NCBI GenBank assembly: GCA_965223415.1
Contig: OZ245002.1
Span: forward strand, 4,224,001-4,288,000
Length of the DNA stretch: 64,000 nucleotides
Reading direction: 5' to 3'
Origin: Myxococcota bacterium
Lineage (GTDB): Bacteria; Myxococcota_A; UBA9160; UBA6930
Part shown: piece after piece, positions 8,501-64,000 of the stretch
Position numbering within the stretch: the stretch's first letter is position 1
Layout: each line of letters starts with the position of its first letter
Position numbers and translations under genes: made by a program
Notes under the pieces: generated by a model
Database searches by the model: none
Told to the model about the DNA's origin: nothing
Seen by the model: only the letters and a program-made list of their open reading frames with translations

Positions 8501-9382
8501 ATGGCGACCGCTCTCGCATCCGACGTGCTCGAGGTCACGCGTCTCACGGGCTCGCTCGGCGCCGAGGTCCGGGGAATCGCCCTGGGCCAGGCCGGTCCGG
8601 AGGAGGCCGAGGCGCTGAAGGAGCTGATGGCGGAGCATCTGGTCCTCTTCTTCCCGGACCAGCACCTCACGCCCGACGCCCACATTGCCTTCGGGCGCCT
8701 CTTCGGGGAGCTCGAGGCCCACCCGAACCTCCACCTCGACGCCGAGCGGCCCGAGTTCTTCGAGCTCCACGCCACCGGCGGCGCCGGCGCCATCGCCGAC
8801 GAATGGCACAGCGATCTCACCTGTCAGGAGGAGCCGTCGGTGATGGCGATCCTGCAAATGGTGAAGTGCCCGCCCTTCGGCGGTGACACGCTCTGGGCGA
8901 ACGCCTACAAGGCCTACGACGAGCTCTCGCCGCCGATGAAGGAGCTCTGCGAGGGGCTCACCGCTCTCCACGACGCCCATCCCCACGGCAAGCCAGAGAA
9001 CATGGCGATCCATCCCGTCGTGCGAACCCACCCGGTGACCGGCCGCAAGTCCCTCTTCGTGAACGAGCACTTCACCCGCCGCATCGTCGAGATGGGCCAC
9101 CAGGAGAGCGAGGCCCTGCTCGGGTTCCTGACCGGTTGGATCACGAGCCCGAACTTCACGGTCCGCTACCACTGGAGCGAAGGCACGATCGCGATGTGGG
9201 ACAACCGCTGCACGCAGCACTGCGTGCTGAACGACTTCGAGGGTGAGCGGGTCATCCAGCGCGTCACCGTGATGGGCGATCGGCCCGAGGCCGCTGCTCC
9301 GCTGCGCTGGGAACCCTTCGTCAAGCCCTTCAGCGCCGCGAGCCGGCACGACCGCCAGCTCAAGACGTTCCTGCACCGCTAG
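8501..9382 (+). CDS. TauD/TfdA family Fe(II)/2-oxoglutarate dioxygenase
   Basis: WHSD, GGDTLWA, HPVVRTHPVTGRKSLFVN, WDNRCTQH. Confidence 0.93.
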   Translation: MATALASDVLEVTRLTGSLGAEVRGIALGQAGPEEAEALKELMAEHLVLFFPDQHLTPDAHIAFGRLFGELEAHPNLHLDAERPEFFELHATGGAGAIADEWHSDLTCQEEPSVMAILQMVKCPPFGGDTLWANAYKAYDELSPPMKELCEGLTALHDAHPHGKPENMAIHPVVRTHPVTGRKSLFVNEHFTRRIVEMGHQESEALLGFLTGWITSPNFTVRYHWSEGTIAMWDNRCTQHCVLNDFEGERVIQRVTVMGDRPEAAAPLRWEPFVKPFSAASRHDRQLKTFLHR

Positions 9383-54064: not shown

Positions 54065-55993
54065 ATGAAGCTGCGAAGCGTGCTCCTGTCCGCGCTCACC
54101 CTCGTGCTGCTGGCCGGCTGCGCCCAGCTCGGCATGCACTGGATGGCCGAGGCCCGCCCGGCCCCGCGGATCGAGGCCCCGGCACCGCCCGGCGAGGCCA
54201 CGCCCTGGACCGGCCTGGCGGCCCTGGACGCCCCCGAGGACTTCCACTTTGCCGTCGTCTCGGACCGCACCGGCGAGCACCGCGCCGGCGTCTTCGCCGC
54301 CGCCATGCCCAAGCTCAACCTGCTCCAGCCGGCCTTCGTGGTGAGCGTCGGAGACCTGATCGAGGGCTACACGGACGACCGCGCACGCCTGGCCGAGGAG
54401 TGGGACGAGATCGAGGGCTTCGTCGACGGCCTGCGCATGCCCTTCTTCTACGCGGCCGGCAACCACGACATGAGCAACCAGGTGATGGCCGAGACCTGGC
54501 GCGACCGCTTCGGCCCTTCCTACTACCACTTCCGCTACAAGGGCGCGCTGTTCGTCGTGCTGAACAGCGAGCTGTTCGGGATGGTCCACGACCCCCGGAA
54601 GTCGGTGCCCGGCCCGTGGACCCAGGCCGAGCAGATGGCGTGGGTCGAACAGGTCCTCGCCGAGAACGCCGACGTCCGCTGGACCTTCGTCTTCGTCCAC
54701 CAGCCCCTCTGGGACGCGCCCCAGATCCACCCGGACTGGCTCAAGGTCGAGGAGCTCCTCGGCGAGCGGGGTTACACGGTCTTTGCCGGGCACTACCACC
54801 GCTACACCGAGCACGTCCGCTCGGGACGCCGCTTCATCACCCTGGCCACCACGGGAGGTGGCAGCCAGATGCGCGGCCTGCCGTGGGGCGAGTTCGACCA
54901 CGTCGCCTTCGTGCGCATGACCGAAGCCGACGGCGACGAACCGGTGGTCGCGAACGTGATGCTGGACGGCGTCCAGGGCGCCGACGTCCGCACCGCCGAC
55001 CTCCGCGCCCTGGTCGACACGATGGCCGGCGCCGTGGCCGTGCTACCCCTGCGCGGGGCCGGTCGCACCTTCCGCAGCGCCACCGCCCGCTTCGAGATCA
55101 CCAACGGGCTCGCGCAGCCCTTGGACGTGGAGGCGCACTTCGACGCGGGCCGCGACCTGGCGCCGGAGCTGGACCGGGCCACCCGCCGACTCGCTCCCGG
55201 CGCGGTCGAGGTGGTGGAGGTGCCGCTGCGCGCGCGCCAGCCGCTCCGCTACGAGGAGCTGGCACCGGCCCATGCCCACTTCACCCTGCGCGCGGCGGGG
55301 CCCGGCGGCGAGCCGGTCGAGATCGAGCAGCAGCGCGCTCTCGTCCCCGACGGTCCCTTCGCGATCACCCGCAGCGACGAGGCCGTGACCGTCGACGGGG
55401 ATCTCGCGGAATGGGATGGCCTGCGCTTCCGGGTCGACGCGCCCGCCCACGTGGAAGGCCACGGTCGCTACCACGGGGCCGAGGACGCGAGCTTCCGATT
55501 CGATCTGCGCCGGGACGCGAGCCATCTCTACGTGGCGGTCGAGGTGACGGACGATTCCATCGTCGCCTCCTCCCACGAGATCGCCCGGGAACAGGACGGT
55601 GTGCAGCTCTCCCTCGATCCGCGCCCGGCACCGGAGCGCAACCAGAACGGCAACCTCTTCGCGTTGATCCGCAGCGGTGCGCTGGCGAAGATGGTTACCG
55701 CGTTCCTCACCGTCGAAGAGCCGCGCCCGGATCCGATCCTGGCGCTGTTCGCCGGCGGCGCCGAGCCGGTCCACCTCCACGCGGCACGCCGGACGCCCGA
55801 CGGCTACGCCACCGAGGTGGCGATCCCGATCGCAGCGCTGGAAGAGCGGGCCGGCGGCGAGTGGGACGGCCTGCGCGTGAACGTCACCGTGTCCGACTTC
55901 GACGAAGGCGAGTCCGGCCACAACACGCTCTCGTGGCGGCCGAGCCGCTTCTCCCCCGGGACTGCCGAGGGCGCCGGCACCTTCGGGCTCTAG
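54065..55993 (+). CDS. Lipoprotein: calcineurin-like metallophosphoesterase plus C-terminal CBM9/DOMON-like domain
   Basis: LAGC lipobox, SD, GDLI, GNHD, HQP, GHYH; VDGDLAEW...LYVAVEVTDD...EVAIP. Confidence 0.82.
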   Translation: MKLRSVLLSALTLVLLAGCAQLGMHWMAEARPAPRIEAPAPPGEATPWTGLAALDAPEDFHFAVVSDRTGEHRAGVFAAAMPKLNLLQPAFVVSVGDLIEGYTDDRARLAEEWDEIEGFVDGLRMPFFYAAGNHDMSNQVMAETWRDRFGPSYYHFRYKGALFVVLNSELFGMVHDPRKSVPGPWTQAEQMAWVEQVLAENADVRWTFVFVHQPLWDAPQIHPDWLKVEELLGERGYTVFAGHYHRYTEHVRSGRRFITLATTGGGSQMRGLPWGEFDHVAFVRMTEADGDEPVVANVMLDGVQGADVRTADLRALVDTMAGAVAVLPLRGAGRTFRSATARFEITNGLAQPLDVEAHFDAGRDLAPELDRATRRLAPGAVEVVEVPLRARQPLRYEELAPAHAHFTLRAAGPGGEPVEIEQQRALVPDGPFAITRSDEAVTVDGDLAEWDGLRFRVDAPAHVEGHGRYHGAEDASFRFDLRRDASHLYVAVEVTDDSIVASSHEIAREQDGVQLSLDPRPAPERNQNGNLFALIRSGALAKMVTAFLTVEEPRPDPILALFAGGAEPVHLHAARRTPDGYATEVAIPIAALEERAGGEWDGLRVNVTVSDFDEGESGHNTLSWRPSRFSPGTAEGAGTFGL

Positions 55994-57354
55994 TCGATGC
56001 CGAGGCGCTGCATCCACCGGTAGAGGGTGGTGCGGTCGACCTGGAGGCGCGCGGCGGCCTCCTGCCGGCTGCCGCCGCAGGCGGCGAGAGCGGAACGGAT
56101 GCGCTCGGCGGTGACGCGGTCGAGGGTCGCGCGCAGGCTCTCGTCCTCAGGCGCCGCCGTCGGCGGCTCCCCCGCCGCCGCTGTGCCGGCGCCGCCCGGG
56201 AGCAGGTCCTCGAGCTCGATCCGCGAGCCGCGGGCCAGCACCACGCCACGCTCGATGGCGTTCTCGAGCTCTCGCGCGTTGCCGGGCCACCCGTGGCTCC
56301 GCATCCACGCCTCGGCCTCGTCGCTCCAGCCGTCCAGGGGAGGCGTCCGGTCCCGCGCCGCGGAAGCGAAGAAGCGCCGGGCGAGGGGCAGGACGTCTTC
56401 CGGCCGCTCCCGGAGCGGCGGCAGGTGGATCGGGATCACCGCGAGCCGGAAGTAGAGGTCCTCCCGGAAGCGCCCCGCTTCGACCTCGGCGGGCAGGTCG
56501 CGGTTGGTGGCGGCGACGATGCGCGCGTCGACCTCGTGCTCGGTCTCGCCGCCCACCCGCACGAGCCGCTTCTCCTGGAGCACCCGCAGCAGCTTGGCCT
56601 GGAACTCCAGGGACACCTCGCCCATCTCGTCGAGGAAGAGGGTCCCGCCGTTCGCCCGCTCGAACAGGCCGGCTCGGGCGCGCTCCGCTCCCGTGAAGGC
56701 GCCACGCTCGTGGCCGAAGAGCTCGCTCTCCAGCACGCCCGGGGCCAGTGCCTTGCAGTTCACCGCGACGAAGGGGCCGCCGACCCGCTCCGAGAGCACG
56801 TGCACGGCGCGGGCGATGCGCTCCTTGCCCGTGCCGCTCTCGCCGGTGACGAGCACGGTGGCCTCGCTGCGTGCCGCCCGGCGGACGATGTCCATCACCT
56901 CGGCCATCATCGGGCTCTCGGCGACGATGGCCTCGCTGCCCTGCTCCCGGCCGAGCTCCGCGCGCAGGTGGCGGTTCTCGCGGCGCAGCCGGGTGTGTTC
57001 CAGGGCACGCTTCACGAGGGCGCGGAGGCCGTCGTTGTCGAAGGGCTTCTCGACGTAGTCGAAGGCGCCTAGCTGCACCGCGCGCACGGCGGTCTCGATG
57101 CTCGCGTGGGCGGTGAGGACGACGACCGGCAGGTCCGCGTCGATCTCCCGCAGCCGCTCGAGCACGGCGATGCCGTCCATGCCGGGCATGCGGAGGTCGG
57201 TCAGCAGCAGGTCGAAGCGCCCCTCCGTGAGGGCGGCGAGGGCCGCTTCCGGCGCGTCGAAGCCCACGGCTTCGTAGCCCTCGCGGCGCAGGAGCATCTC
57301 GAGGATGGCAACGAGCCGGGCCTCGTCGTCGAGGATGGCGATGCGGGGCTTCAA
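55990..57354 (-). CDS. Sigma-54-dependent response regulator (NtrC family)
   Basis: Receiver (LDDE, TDLRMP, KP), GESGTGKE, GAFTGA, FLDE, WPGNAREL, Fis HTH; TTG start overlapping the kinase stop. Confidence 0.95.
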   Translation of the reverse strand: MKPRIAILDDEARLVAILEMLLRREGYEAVGFDAPEAALAALTEGRFDLLLTDLRMPGMDGIAVLERLREIDADLPVVVLTAHASIETAVRAVQLGAFDYVEKPFDNDGLRALVKRALEHTRLRRENRHLRAELGREQGSEAIVAESPMMAEVMDIVRRAARSEATVLVTGESGTGKERIARAVHVLSERVGGPFVAVNCKALAPGVLESELFGHERGAFTGAERARAGLFERANGGTLFLDEMGEVSLEFQAKLLRVLQEKRLVRVGGETEHEVDARIVAATNRDLPAEVEAGRFREDLYFRLAVIPIHLPPLRERPEDVLPLARRFFASAARDRTPPLDGWSDEAEAWMRSHGWPGNARELENAIERGVVLARGSRIELEDLLPGGAGTAAAGEPPTAAPEDESLRATLDRVTAERIRSALAACGGSRQEAAARLQVDRTTLYRWMQRLGID

Positions 57355-58316
57355 GCGGCCTCCTGCCGGCGCCACGGCAGGCTGAGCTCGAAGCAGGCGC
57401 CGCGGCCGCTCGGGCCCGCGCCGCCGCCGGGCACGAGCCGCAGGCTGCCGCCGTGGGCCCGGGCGATCTGCGCCGCCATGGCCAGGCCGAGGCCCGTGCC
57501 CTCCGCCTTGGTCGTGAAGAACGGCTCGAAGAGCTTGTCGCGGGCGTCCGGGGGAACGCCGGGGCCGTCGTCGGCCACCCGCAGGTGGAGGCCCCGCTCG
57601 TCGCGGGATCCCTCCAGGCGAACCCGTCCTTCGGGCGCGACCGCCTCCGCCGCATTCGTCAGCAGGCACAGGAGCACCTGGGAGACGAGACCCGGATCCA
57701 CGTCGATGCTCGTCCCCGCCAGGTCGTCCCTGCGGTCCGCGAACGCGACCCGGTGGGCCTCGAAGGGGGCCTGCGCCAGCTCGACGGCGCGCTCCACCAC
57801 CGCGTCGAGGGAGCTCGGCTGGGGCTCCAGCGTGGTGGGGCGGGCGAAGGCGAGCAGGGCGGTGATGAGGCCGTTCAGCCGGTCCGCCTCCTCCACCACG
57901 AAGGCGCAGGCGCGGTGGGCGTCGTCGCCGGAGTCGAACTGCTCCTGCACCATGGCCGCGGAGGCGCGCATCACGCCCAGGGGGTTGCGCACCTCGTGGG
58001 CGATGCCGGCGGCGAGCCGGCCGATCGCGGCCAGCTTCTCGTTCTCGAAGGCGCTGCGTTCGGAGGCCGCCAGGGCCTCTCCCTGGGCGCGGATCCGCTC
58101 CGCGTCCCGTCGCGCCCGCTCCCGGGCGCGATACAGGGCGCCGGCCAGGCCGCCCATCACGGTGAGGTTGAAGGTGAAGGTCGCGCCCACGAGCCAGGTC
58201 GCGTCGGCGCCGCCGAGCCGCATCTCCACGCCCGTCCAGGCCAGGGCCAGGGTGTCCACCAGCCCGAGGGCGGCTCCTGTCAGCGCGCCCCACAGGGCCC
58301 AGCGCCGTTCCGTCAC
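57351..58316 (-). CDS. Membrane sensor histidine kinase
   Basis: Two TM helices, AHEVRNPL, NAAEA, DDGPG, FFTTK, GTGLGL; start approximate. Confidence 0.92.
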   Translation of the reverse strand: MTERRWALWGALTGAALGLVDTLALAWTGVEMRLGGADATWLVGATFTFNLTVMGGLAGALYRARERARRDAERIRAQGEALAASERSAFENEKLAAIGRLAAGIAHEVRNPLGVMRASAAMVQEQFDSGDDAHRACAFVVEEADRLNGLITALLAFARPTTLEPQPSSLDAVVERAVELAQAPFEAHRVAFADRRDDLAGTSIDVDPGLVSQVLLCLLTNAAEAVAPEGRVRLEGSRDERGLHLRVADDGPGVPPDARDKLFEPFFTTKAEGTGLGLAMAAQIARAHGGSLRLVPGGGAGPSGRGACFELSLPWRRQEAA

Positions 58317-58413
58317 GAGGTGACTCCTCTCGATCGAAGGGTAACGCCAGGGCATCCTCCGCAAGCCGCATGCCACGGCGCGGAGGCCCGCCGGGCCCGT
58401 CCGGGCGTGCCCC

Positions 58414-58452
58414 GTTGCAGCGCTGCCACGGCCCGTGTTGCAGGGCTGCAAC
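58414..58452. promoter_or_regulatory. Tandem palindromic enhancer (UAS) sites, probably for the adjacent NtrC-family regulator
   Basis: GTTGCAG-N2-CTGC(C/A)AC at 58414-58429 and 58437-58452. Confidence 0.65.
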
Positions 58453-58491
58453 CCGCCCGGACCGGGAGCGGGCCGGGGAGCTCCCCGCGGC

Positions 58492-58507
58492 CGGCACGCC
58501 GCTTGCT
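58492..58507 (+). promoter_or_regulatory. Sigma-54 -24/-12 promoter
   Basis: cGGCACG-ccgc-TTGCT matches TGGCACG-N4-TTGCW. Confidence 0.8.
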
Positions 58508-58543
58508 CTTCAACGCGGCACACGCCCACCCTTGGAGGAACCC

Positions 58544-58918: not shown

Positions 58919-59380
58919 GTGGAGAAGGGCGACCTGGTCGAAATCGAAGCCATCAAGCAGCTCAAGGCCCGCTACTTCCGCCTCCTGGACCAGAAGCGCT
59001 GGGAGGAGTGGGGCCAGGTCTTCAGCGAGGACGCGGAGCTCGATACGACCCAGGAGGCGCCGAACGCCCGGGCTTCCGGCCGCGACGCCATCGTCGAGAT
59101 GGTGAGCACGGCGGTCGGCGCCGCGGTGACGGTCCACCACGGCCACATGCCGGAGATCGAGATCACCGGGCCGACCACGGCGAGCGGCACCTGGGCGATG
59201 GAGGACTACCTCGAGTTTCCGGGCGATCCGCCGCCGCTGGTGGTGCACGGCCGGGGCCACTACTTCGAGGAGTACGAGAAAGGCGGCGACGGCGCCTGGC
59301 GGATCAAGTCGCTCACCCTGCGTCGGCTCTGGCTCCAGCACAGCGGGAAGCGGACCTTCCCGCCTCAAGGCCTGCCCTGA
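58919..59380 (+). CDS. NTF2/SnoaL-like protein (BaiE-like)
   Basis: IEAIKQLKARYFRLLD, HHGHMPEI, GTWAMED, WRIKS. Confidence 0.88.
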   Translation: MEKGDLVEIEAIKQLKARYFRLLDQKRWEEWGQVFSEDAELDTTQEAPNARASGRDAIVEMVSTAVGAAVTVHHGHMPEIEITGPTTASGTWAMEDYLEFPGDPPPLVVHGRGHYFEEYEKGGDGAWRIKSLTLRRLWLQHSGKRTFPPQGLP

Positions 59381-60317: not shown

Positions 60318-60956
60318 CTAGGCGAGCTCCAGCAGGTTCCGGGCCAGGTCGACGCCGTCCTTCGCCTGGGCGCCCCAGCCGTCCGCGCCTTGGTCGTCGG
60401 CCCACTGCTGGGTCGTCACGCCTCCGCCGACGATCACCGGGTACTTGTCCCGGACCTTCATCTCCTGGAGCAGGTCGAGCAGCTCCGCGAACTTCTCGAG
60501 GGCCGGGGCGAAGACCACCGACACCGCGATCATGTCCGCGCCGCTCTTCTCCGCCGTCTCGTAGAAATCCCAGGGCGTGTTCTTCTCGCCCATGTCGATC
60601 ACGTCGAAGCCGCCGATCGAGAGCAGGGTTCCCACCAGGTTCTTGCCGATGTTGTGCTGGCTGAGGAGCGTGCCCAGCACGATCTTCCGATTGTTCTTCG
60701 GCGTCTCGCCCCGGGGAAGCGCCGCCTCGATCAACGGGATGCAGGTCTTGGCGGTCACGCCCGCGCGCACCAGGTCGAGCACGATGGCCTTGCGGGCGGC
60801 GAAGCGATCGCCCACGTCGCTCAGGCCCTGCATCACGCCTTCTTCGAGCAGCTGCATGGGGTCGAGGCCAGCGGCCAGGAGCTCGCGGGTCATCTCCGCG
60901 GCCGGCTCCGGCTGGGTCTCGCTCACCTTCCGTCGCAGGTCTCCGATCGTCGCCAT
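60318..60956 (-). CDS. Corrinoid (B12-binding) methyltransferase partner protein, MtmC/MttC-like
   Basis: Cap domain GLSDVGDRF, HNIGKNLV, GFDVIDMG, VIVGGG, GADGW. Confidence 0.85.
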   Translation of the reverse strand: MATIGDLRRKVSETQPEPAAEMTRELLAAGLDPMQLLEEGVMQGLSDVGDRFAARKAIVLDLVRAGVTAKTCIPLIEAALPRGETPKNNRKIVLGTLLSQHNIGKNLVGTLLSIGGFDVIDMGEKNTPWDFYETAEKSGADMIAVSVVFAPALEKFAELLDLLQEMKVRDKYPVIVGGGVTTQQWADDQGADGWGAQAKDGVDLARNLLELA

Positions 60957-62336: not shown

Positions 62337-63518
62337 TCAGCCCTGCAGGTAGCACTCGCCCTCGCGCATGCAGCGCATGAGGGCGGCGCATTCCTGGCCG
62401 ACGTAGCGGATGTGCTGGGGCAGCAGCCACGGCATCACGTCCACGATGTACCAGGAGAGATCCTCGGGGTCGCTGAAGGCGTCCTCCCACTGGATGTCGC
62501 TGGCATCGTGGTTGAGCAGCATCGCCCGGGCCTTGCCGCCGTCGTTGCCGAACAGGAAGACGCCGGAGGGATCGACGTGGAGGGGCAGGGGGCGCTTGAA
62601 CCAGTCTCCCAGCACACGCCAGGAGCGCGCGAAGTCCCGGGCCGGGAGCACGACCCGTTGGAGGAGGAAGGTGGCCGTACCCGCTTCGACCCCGAGACGC
62701 CGGGCCTCCTCCCGGTGTCGGCGCACGAGGGCCGTCGCTTCGAGGGGCCAGTCCGTGTAGACGTCGCAGCGCTGCAGCACGTAGGAGGCGAAGAGCTTGT
62801 CCTCGACGATCTCGAAGTCTGCCGACGCGAGGTTCGCGTCCCGCGCACCGGGGAGGAAGCACCGTTCGAAATCGTCGCGGGTGAAGTCCAGGAAGGCAGG
62901 GAACTCGTCCCTCGCCTCCTTCTCGCCATTCTCGAGGACCGGTGTCTCGACGGTCACCAGGGCGTTCAGCGCCACGGCGGCGCGCTCGCCGGGGGCGCTC
63001 TCCCGCTCGCTGCCGATCCGGAGCGCGAGGTTCAGGAGCTGGAGCCAGCCGTCGGCGACGCTGCTGGTGAAGATCGGGAAGCTCGTCTTGCGCGAGAGGA
63101 AGACCTTCCGCTCGGGGATTTCGGGCGCGGTCAGGCGGAGGCCCGTGCGCTCTCCGGACCGGAAGGGCAGGTCGCGGATCGACGCGGCCAGGTCGCCTTG
63201 AGGCTTCTCGCGCAGGTCCGATATCTGGACGTCCGACCGCAGGGCATCGACGGGGGTGGCGCCGAGCTCCGGCGAGAGCCGCCCACGAGGGCCCGCCAGC
63301 CGGCCGTCCTCGTCGAGGCCCTGCTTCCAGAGGACGACCAGGGCGTCGCCGGTGGCCTTCCGGTCGTCGCCCGCGAGCACCAGGTGGCGGACGTCCGGGT
63401 GCGCTGCCAGCTCTCGCAGCAGCTGCTCCAGCTCGGAGCGGGAGCCGAGCGGCGCCGAGAACGCGATGCGCTCTCCTTCGAGATGGGTGCCACAGACGAC
63501 GACGTCACGAGTGGGCAT
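62337..63518 (-). CDS. Fusion of MtrA-like, degenerate thymidylate synthase-like and DUF4346-like domains
   Basis: AAHPDVRHLVLAG...TGDALVVLWKQGLDEDGRL; VADGWLQLL...KLFASYVLQRCDVYTDWP; DPSGVF...HIRYVGQE...YLQG; AGGAGG RBS. Confidence 0.65.
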   Translation of the reverse strand: MPTRDVVVCGTHLEGERIAFSAPLGSRSELEQLLRELAAHPDVRHLVLAGDDRKATGDALVVLWKQGLDEDGRLAGPRGRLSPELGATPVDALRSDVQISDLREKPQGDLAASIRDLPFRSGERTGLRLTAPEIPERKVFLSRKTSFPIFTSSVADGWLQLLNLALRIGSERESAPGERAAVALNALVTVETPVLENGEKEARDEFPAFLDFTRDDFERCFLPGARDANLASADFEIVEDKLFASYVLQRCDVYTDWPLEATALVRRHREEARRLGVEAGTATFLLQRVVLPARDFARSWRVLGDWFKRPLPLHVDPSGVFLFGNDGGKARAMLLNHDASDIQWEDAFSDPEDLSWYIVDVMPWLLPQHIRYVGQECAALMRCMREGECYLQG

Positions 63519-64000
63519 GACGATCCTCCTGGCCTCTGCGGGTGCAGAAGGCACGGATGAACTGGTCTTCCAGCCGTTCGAGCACGGCTTCGTGGGCCGC
63601 CTCCAGGCCCTGCTCGACCCAGTGGGTCAGCTCCACCTGCTTGAGGGCGAGCATCTTGCGGACCAGCAGGTCCGGGTCGTCCGGGACGTAGAGGCCCTCT
63701 GCGATGCCGCGTTCGAACAGCGCGCGCGGGATCGCGGCGCCCTCGTCCCAGATCGGCGACTCCCCGGCCGCGTTGGCGAGCCTCGACGCCCAGCCGTAGC
63801 CGTCGCGGCTGCACATTCGCAGGAAGTCCGGGCGCTCGAGGAAGTAGCGGGCGCCTTCCCGCAGCACCGCCAGGTGGGCGGGGAGGGTGTCCGCGTGCGC
63901 GTCGTGGGCGGCTCGTATGCAGGCGAGGAATTCGCGCATCCGCACCCGGTGGATCTCGCGGAAGAGCGAGTCCTTTCCGTCGATGACGCCGTAGAGGGTC
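63505..64000 (-). CDS. TetR/AcrR family transcriptional regulator (5' end beyond window)
   Basis: Frame open to the window edge, TLYGVIDGKDSLF end of the TetR HTH; FERGIAEG. Confidence 0.75.
   Translation of the reverse strand, partial: TLYGVIDGKDSLFREIHRVRMREFLACIRAAHDAHADTLPAHLAVLREGARYFLERPDFLRMCSRDGYGWASRLANAAGESPIWDEGAAIPRALFERGIAEGLYVPDDPDLLVRKMLALKQVELTHWVEQGLEAAHEAVLERLEDQFIRAFCTRRGQEDRHAHS

Follow-up and report, generated by a model that had tools for sequence, protein, structure and literature searches.

What is a protein with the fold of thymidylate synthase (ThyA), apparently emptied of its catalytic residues, doing in a putative operon for corrinoid-dependent methyl transfer? 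The question is raised by a gene on the (-) strand of a 64,000-nucleotide stretch of DNA from a Myxococcota bacterium (assembly GCA_965223415.1, contig OZ245002.1, positions 4,224,001 to 4,288,000 of the forward strand; this whole stretch is hereafter the window), whose product, here named TRI, joins an MtrA-like, a ThyA-like and a DUF4346 domain. Many genomes encode a corrinoid-dependent substrate methyltransferase and a corrinoid protein without a recognisable second methyltransferase. We tentatively propose, with a confidence a little short of even, that TRI is the methyl-acceptor-side component of a TetR-controlled three-component system and would act as a methylcorrinoid:tetrahydrofolate methyltransferase of a new fold, a proposal that draws on sequence comparison and a structural model. 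The gene and the parts of its product are located as follows (aa, amino acids; residue numbers refer to the 393-aa form unless stated, and are higher by 12 in the 405-aa form, P0001):

62337..63518, (-) strand: gene of the three-domain protein TRI, 393 aa from the ATG at 63518, with the stop TGA at 62339-62337; defined by the open reading frame (ORF), a Shine-Dalgarno (SD) sequence and a database protein
63144..63518, (-) strand: MtrA-like Rossmann-type domain, residues 1-125, without the corrinoid-ligating His
62583..63095, (-) strand: ThyA-fold domain with eroded active site, residues 142-312
62853..62858, (-) strand: approximate site, from alignments, of an in-frame loss of ~60 residues (...FERCF / LPGARDA...) that removes RR..W
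62832..62834, (-) strand: Asn codon (N229) in the column of the ThyA nucleophile Cys, from hhalign and the alignment column
62340..62582, (-) strand: PterinBD-DUF4346 domain, residues 313-393, beta3-alpha2, the most conserved part of the protein

The ORF as called extends over 62337..63554 (-) and gives 405 aa from a GTG codon. The ATG at 63518 has GGAGGA 5 nt upstream, and the 393-aa form that begins there is 100% identical to the database protein P0002. The GC content at third codon positions is 0.91, similar to that of the adjacent genes, and a sequencing-run listing placed the TRI stretch in four DNA runs of one study, with no RNA run listed. An AlphaFold2 model built from a 52-row alignment has a mean pLDDT (predicted local distance difference test) of 91.5 and a pTM (predicted template modelling score) of 0.89. 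It was aligned to 48,161 representative PDB chains, and Foldseek recovers ThyA chains at E ~1e-7 and probability 1.00. Taken together, sequence matches and model indicate that TRI consists of three real domains, MtrA-like, ThyA-fold and DUF4346. A first-pass annotation, made from the letters of the window, had described this ORF and its tripartite architecture; both are upheld by the ATG with its SD sequence, by the Pfam, phmmer and profile matches given below and by the model, and the ThyA likeness that it had read in the sequence reappears in the structural search.

The middle domain has the ThyA alpha/beta fold and scores poorly as a ThyA enzyme. By itself TRI gives no PF00303 match at E<=1, and against the methanogen-type ThyA family TIGR03283 it reaches 12.4 bits (E 0.082) where the curated cut-off is 174.55. 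Full-length relatives of TRI pass PF00303, the profile of its clade matches ThyA 3uwl_A at E 1.3e-9, and hhalign of the clade against the canonical ThyA of another carrier genome returns a probability of 95.9 (E 5.7e-9). When TRI is compared with ThyA and with the ThyA-fold relatives MilA CMP hydroxymethylase (5jnh/5b6d), phage dCMP hydroxylase (9iqc/9iqu) and T4 dCMP hydroxymethylase (6l18), the nucleophile Cys is replaced by Asn, the ~60 residues that bear the RR..W segment in homologues are absent, RSxD reads QRCD (Arg to Gln, with the Asp kept), the Asn of PFN is Glu, as in the rest of its clade, and SAHxY reads QRVVL. With the nucleophile Cys, the Arg pair and the His/Tyr motif gone, TRI is, as judged from its sequence, not a thymidylate synthase. 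The first-pass annotation had noticed the change from RSxD to QRCD and the loss of HIY, which the alignment confirms, and had taken the catalytic Pro-Cys loop to be deleted; here the erosion is real and the deletion of Pro-Cys itself is not, as these positions are occupied by Ala-Asn and the missing stretch is immediately upstream of them. Two clade relatives, P0090 and P0078, carry deletions of their own within the same stretch, and the RR..W-bearing segment is dispensable in the clade. The deletion in TRI could not be dated: a single genome of the sample belongs to the same genus, and its copy, which is full-length, is just 48% identical and gives no blastn match.

TRI also differs from ThyA (PF00303, EC 2.1.1.45) in being fused to two further domains and in not being the cell's source of thymidine monophosphate (dTMP). 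A PF00303 search of the window genome, which is a single 5.83-Mb contig and 97% complete, gave no match, and the genome encodes a ThyX with two Thy1 domains in a single 538-aa frame (G000:C1:1941967-1943319; loci L026/L027); the same double-Thy1 arrangement is seen in a 563-aa frame of the Binatia genome G203. Each of five other carrier genomes tested has a thymidylate synthase of its own, namely ThyX in both Dehalococcoidia (one cut by the contig end) and in the Binatia genome, and a ThyA of ~400 bits in the gammaproteobacterial and Myxococcota genomes. With the active-site residues gone and ThyX or canonical ThyA found in all six carrier genomes tested, the earlier statement that TRI does not serve dTMP synthesis stands.

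To place this erosion in the family, we collected relatives of TRI. Of 7,999 candidates scored in a word-indexed search, 244 reached E<=0.001, and the best 120 of these are mostly 420-480 aa long and 48-62% identical to TRI. HMMER, run in full over 1.84 billion representatives, gave 191 matches at E<=0.001; 22 of them were domain-scanned, and PF00303 and PF14251 were found in all 22 and MtrA in 16 (E<=0.01). A tree of 63 rows was built by a quick IQ-TREE search, with SH-aLRT (Shimodaira-Hasegawa-like approximate likelihood ratio test) support only and midpoint rooting for drawing. In one half of this tree (26 rows) RR..W, PC, RSxD and SAHxY are all kept. The other half consists, in order, of a Thr-Lys-Arg/NAQxY group, four Dehalococcoidia proteins and a clade of 25 rows (support 100) that includes TRI. 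Cys occupies the nucleophile column in 37 of the 63 rows; no member of the 25-row clade has it, the residues there being D, N, G, A, S or E, and members of that clade keep at most one Arg of the pair. A minimum of two changes explains the nucleophile column on the tree: one falls at the clade's base, the other in a lone Dehalococcoidia row. The Cys-less clade is monophyletic and is found in metagenome-assembled genomes (MAGs) of Myxococcota, Binatia and Gammaproteobacteria. On this sequence evidence the erosion is an old trait of the whole clade, and what is peculiar to the TRI gene is only the ~60-residue deletion, with its parallels in two relatives. The name 'thymidylate synthase', which the JGI annotation gives to many clade members, is almost certainly wrong for the TRI clade.

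Close counterparts are the uncharacterised intact three-domain MtrA-like/ThyA/DUF4346 proteins (for example P0145, P0155 and P0166), which have the same domains in the same order and the same short MtrA loop without His. Unlike TRI, they keep RR..W, PC, RSxD and SAHxY and occupy the other half of the tree. A distant intact member, P0244 (733 aa), is fused to a dCMP/cytidine deaminase domain, a fusion that ties its branch to pyrimidine nucleotide metabolism.

The evidence for a role in methyl transfer comes from the genes that accompany TRI:

63505..64000, (-) strand, running past the window end to the equivalent of 64179: TetR-family regulator, 224 aa, PF00440 at 40.4 bits
60967..62325, (-) strand: non-pyrrolysine MtmB-family methyltransferase, 452 aa, PF05369 at 151.6 bits, SD AGGAGA, ATG 11 nt after the TRI stop
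60318..60956, (-) strand: corrinoid protein, 212 aa, with B12-binding domains PF02310 and PF02607 and the His kept in SQHNIGKN

The end of the TetR frame reaches 14 nt into the TRI gene (the full TetR ORF is at L025 3505..4179), the corrinoid gene starts 10 nt after the MtmB-family stop with its own SD sequence, and a convergent APH-type kinase gene closes the operon. From the layout of the sequence, TRI is translationally coupled to the MtmB homologue and the corrinoid protein. A terminator and promoter scan of the TRI operon gave nothing above chance. The MtmB homologue matches 1l2q_A at E 6e-33 and has Gly at the pyrrolysine position in an uninterrupted frame, with no in-frame UAG codon. 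The corrinoid protein is MtgC/pyl_corrinoid-like and falls below the equivalog cut-offs; in an alignment of 20 rows with a mean identity of 83% the His of SQHNIGKN is invariant, and two parts of a three-component corrinoid system, the substrate methyltransferase and a corrinoid protein with its His, are identified. The Ser of the same motif is also invariant in 20 of 20 corrinoid rows (the protein at 60318-60956 and 19 homologues). The classic corrinoid motif is DxHxxG, with Asp where this Ser stands.

This arrangement recurs in other genomes. With one genome taken per species, 24 related loci were found, labelled in their records as Myxococcota/Deltaproteobacteria, Binatia, Gammaproteobacteria (Steroidobacteraceae, Halieaceae), Spirochaetaceae and Dehalococcoidia MAGs, and the TRI frame is intact in all of them. 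In tblastn, 19 loci (L001-L018 and L021) have homologues of MtmB and of the corrinoid protein immediately downstream in the same orientation, and in two (L022, L024) these are adjacent and convergent; in the other three (L019, L020, L023) the contig stops at the TRI gene or no more than ~70 bases away from it, and the linkage hence stands at 21 of 24. A TetR homologue is upstream in 15 of the 24. When 201 genomes were sampled evenly from the phylum of the window genome, TRI (E<=1e-20) and an MtmB-family match occurred in the same six genomes and neither occurred in the other 195; all six belong to the order of the window genome, so that the co-occurrence is a count among kin that are not independent. 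The suggestion of the first-pass annotation that the protein serves the methyltransferase system is well founded in this coupling and in the linkage across loci.

What this operon lacks is a second methyltransferase of a known family. None of the PF00809, PF01208 or MtrH type is present in the operon, and no dedicated one was seen genome-wide. The window genome has one MtmB gene and one DUF4346, two Pterin_bind frames only, of 386 aa and 1554 aa, which we read as putative FolP and MetH, and a single URO-D match (364 bits), read as putative HemE; these Pterin_bind and URO-D matches look like housekeeping genes. An activase was not identified either, as a search for RACo/RamA (PF14574) in the 97%-complete genome gave no match, and a RamA/RACo gene adjoins the operon in one of 17 scanned loci (L015). 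We considered TRI itself as a reductive activase and rejected this, since family searches revealed no Fe-S or ATPase signature.

An indication of what may occupy the slot of TRI comes from the same-order genome G008, which has four MtmB-family genes, one of them adjoining a three-domain protein that is divergent from TetR-MtmB-corrinoid. A paralogous cluster of this genome (L034 3443-6353) encodes a corrinoid protein, a homocysteine S-methyltransferase (PF02574, 210 bits) and a non-pyrrolysine MtmB homologue, possibly an amine-to-methionine methyl-transfer system. Since the third gene here is a PF02574 enzyme, the slot of the sister system holds a recognised acceptor-side methyltransferase, an argument drawn from this single paralogous cluster.

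The DUF4346 domain is the part of TRI that would be expected to bind the methyl acceptor. PF14251 (PterinBD-DUF4346) scores 38.2 bits against a cut-off of 29.6 over residues 328-404 of the 405-aa form, and the D, G, H, Y, G, E, Y and Q of DPxG...HxxYxGxE...YxQ, the motif by which this domain had first been assigned, are invariant in the clade, so the assignment is secure. D316, H369 and E376 are invariant or nearly so across 52 distant rows. Mean pairwise identity within the clade (16 rows) is 0.84 for DUF4346, 0.60 for the ThyA-like and 0.56 for the MtrA-like domain. PF14251 also forms the end of the archaeal dihydropteroate-synthase-like family TIGR00284. Folate or pterin binding by TRI is predicted from the Pfam name PterinBD and the fold. 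A protein-atlas search with the DUF4346 part of TRI returned no usable match.

The MtrA-like domain contributes less to the argument. PF04208 (MtrA) scores 22.2 bits on TRI, below its cut-off of 25, and the Rossmann-like MtrA fold is recognised through phmmer, with a match to MtrA 9qtq_A in the PDB at E 2e-5, and through the clade profile, which matches MtrA 5laa_A at E 4.5e-8. In the 9qtq_A alignment the MtrA segment 'KGhiTGQ' aligns to 'KA..TGD' of TRI, with the corrinoid-ligating His in a 2-residue gap, in agreement with the MtrA likeness without a His ligand described at first pass. The missing His is uninformative on erosion, because 50 of the 52 superfamily rows in the alignment, among them members with an intact ThyA site, have the loop shortened in the same way. 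In 10 of the 24 loci the protein begins at the ThyA-like domain with the TetR gene immediately before it, which leaves no room for an MtrA-like domain; the domain is dispensable. TRI thus departs from MtrA, the corrinoid subunit of the methanogen methyl-tetrahydromethanopterin:coenzyme M methyltransferase (5laa, 9qtq), in the absent His, the sub-cut-off Pfam score and the dispensability of the domain.

In the mechanism that we propose, the non-pyrrolysine MtmB homologue would transfer a methyl group from some methylated amine or quaternary amine to the cob(I)alamin that the small corrinoid protein carries. TRI would stand in for the usual second methyltransferase, docking the methyl-Co(III) corrinoid protein and presenting a reduced pterin, most likely tetrahydrofolate, by means of DUF4346 and the remnant ThyA folate pocket. 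The product would be 5-methyl-tetrahydrofolate, which could then be used by MTHFR or MetH. The ThyA fold may have been recruited from a real thymidylate synthase fusion whose nucleotide chemistry was then lost. An acceptor-side role is suggested because the partnership with MtmB and the corrinoid protein is fixed, because the slot of the second methyltransferase is otherwise empty in the window genome, because the G008 cluster has a methyltransferase in the same slot, and because some flanks encode enzymes that use methyl-folate (MTHFR and MetK in one locus, RACo and MetK in another). The link to a pterin is drawn from the PterinBD name, the PF14251 domain at the C-terminus of TIGR00284, the fact that ThyA is a folate enzyme, and the Asp of RSxD, which is kept.

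Several observations weigh against this proposal. The Dehalococcoidia relatives stand beside the same MtmB and corrinoid genes and keep the nucleophile Cys (in three of four) and SAHIY, so that the ThyA site may still act in that branch, which is the main point that the model leaves unexplained; the other synthases of the Dehalococcoidia hosts imply that these Cys-retaining proteins are not their only thymidylate synthase. MTHFR, MetK and RACo neighbours occur in only two of the 17 flank-scanned loci, and MetH or another enzyme could accept the methyl group from the corrinoid protein. Complex predictions of the corrinoid protein with TRI scored 0.20 and 0.17, where the mark is 0.32, and speak neither for nor against the proposal.

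If another enzyme such as MetH performed the second transfer, TRI could be a non-catalytic accessory subunit that holds or delivers the pterin, protects the corrinoid or assembles the complex. All residues with known ThyA chemistry are lost, the MtrA-like domain has no His ligand and the genome has the 1554-aa frame read as MetH, all of which would suit such a subunit, and the 'scaffold' idea of the first-pass annotation agrees with it. We nevertheless regard it as unlikely, as the conserved polar residues of DUF4346 (D316, H369 and E376) resemble a ligand or catalytic site and not a mere scaffold, and a real enzyme occupies the slot in the paralogous cluster. The first-pass annotation had spoken of a pseudo-enzyme or repurposed scaffold serving the methyltransferase system; its link to that system and the loss of ThyA chemistry are retained here, its picture of erosion in a single gene gives way to a clade-wide one, and its interpretation is partly supported, being largely right and too narrow.

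The direction of transfer could also be the reverse: TRI would charge the corrinoid protein with the methyl group of 5-methyl-tetrahydrofolate, and the MtmB homologue would methylate an amine in a biosynthetic N-methylation. Corrinoid methyl transfers are reversible, the MetK and MTHFR neighbours are compatible with both directions, and the carriers seem to include aerobic lineages, in which catabolic corrinoid systems are less expected. We consider this improbable, given that a TetR repressor in front of an operon is typical of inducible catabolism and that the characterised MtmB/MttB-family enzymes all demethylate their substrates, as far as the consulted part of PMC13044021 covers them.

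A residual modification of a nucleotide or small molecule on the ThyA fold, for example with methyl-corrinoid as the donor, a chemistry conceivable for the intact three-domain relatives too, is more improbable still: the nucleophile column varies over D, N, G, A, S and E in the clade, the Arg pair is down to one or none, the Asn of PFN has become Glu, and TRI and two relatives have lost the RR..W segment and the gene is still kept. That TRI is a decaying, functionless remnant kept by linkage, as its ~60-residue deletion and the sub-threshold Pfam scores of two of its three domains might suggest, is scarcely credible, because its frame is intact in all 24 loci from at least four phyla, DUF4346 is 84% identical, the gene is translationally coupled and co-occurs perfectly with MtmB, and the fold is predicted with confidence (pLDDT 91.5).

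Beyond the four genes of the operon the neighbourhood is variable, as seen in a scan of 94 ORFs from the flanks of 17 loci. The Binatia locus L008 (2093-5350 and 7468-13352) has genes for an ArsR-SAM methyltransferase, MTHFR and MetK directly upstream, two tandem MtmB homologues, and a second pair of corrinoid and MtmB genes downstream. The gammaproteobacterial locus L015 has a RACo-type activase and MetK upstream; its corrinoid gene (8696-9340) contains a single in-frame stop in an otherwise conserved frame, which may reflect an error in sequencing, pseudogene status or recoding of the codon. In one Myxococcota locus a URO-D-type gene with a second corrinoid protein lies close by. Three related loci (L002 6892-7830, L005 9121-10101 and L012 9525-10463) have genes for luciferase-like oxidoreductases (PF00296) no more than a few kb from the operon, and two ORFs of the window's own genome (L025 8684-10461) resemble them by eye only; the family is too large for this recurrence to mean much. 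A small SnoaL-like protein (PF13577) is encoded after the operon in L012 (8940-9434) and near the paralogous cluster (L034 10642-11163), and a window ORF at 58919-59380 (+), of 153 aa, is similar to it by eye only. A sigma-54-type response regulator and a histidine kinase, again recognised by eye, are at 55990-58529 (-) of the window, ~2 kb beyond the convergent neighbour, and a sigma-54 activator adjoins the operon in L009.

Among known systems, TRI can be compared with the methylcorrinoid:tetrahydrofolate methyltransferases (MtgA/MtqA-type enzymes, MeTr/AcsE and the folate module of MetH) and with MtaA/MtbA, as it is the third gene beside a substrate methyltransferase and a corrinoid protein and one of its parts is presumed to bind a pterin. 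In contrast to these PF00809 TIM-barrel and URO-D-fold (MtaA/MtbA) enzymes, TRI has an entirely different fold, that of ThyA with DUF4346, and was seen to match neither PF00809 nor PF01208 in sequence or fold, and its activity is a predicted one. The operon also resembles the MtmB/MtmC (monomethylamine) and MtqB/MtqC systems, the latter from Methanococcoides methylutens (in the part of PMC13044021 consulted), in pairing an MtmB-family protein, without pyrrolysine as in MtqB, with a corrinoid protein of the cognate type, a likeness by family and not by direct alignment to MtqB. It differs from them in being bacterial and in having an acceptor side that is not coenzyme M/MtbA. According to the same part of that paper, MtqB of the methanogen acts on tetramethylammonium and choline, this being in 2026 the first function for any non-pyrrolysine MtmB, and the other such homologues are stated to be of unknown function; mtm genes have been noted in Binatia in the portion of PMC11264602 consulted. 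A literature search found no publication on DUF4346/PterinBD or on MtrA-thymidylate synthase-corrinoid proteins, and the supplements of PMC13044021 and PMC11264602 may list such genes; the current version of PMC10418091 makes no mention of thymidylate, MtrA, MtmB, pterin or DUF.

In addition to the PF00809 TIM barrel and MtrH, the ThyA fold with DUF4346 might then form a third structural solution, reached independently, by which a methyl group passes from cobalamin to reduced pterin or back, with a fused thymidylate synthase recruited into a methylamine-type demethylase operon and stripped of its nucleotide site, a possibility to which we give slightly less credence than to the acceptor-side role itself. 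It would be a case of the fold of an essential enzyme, ThyA, being reused after the loss of its chemistry, and the natural forms of the protein, with and without the MtrA-like domain and with and without the deleted segment, already show which parts are dispensable. TRI is a concrete and clonable candidate for the missing second methyl-transfer step, defined by a conserved four-gene operon. If the proposal is true, TRI would be what connects the folate pool with the non-pyrrolysine MtmB systems of Myxococcota, Binatia, Gammaproteobacteria and Dehalococcoidia.

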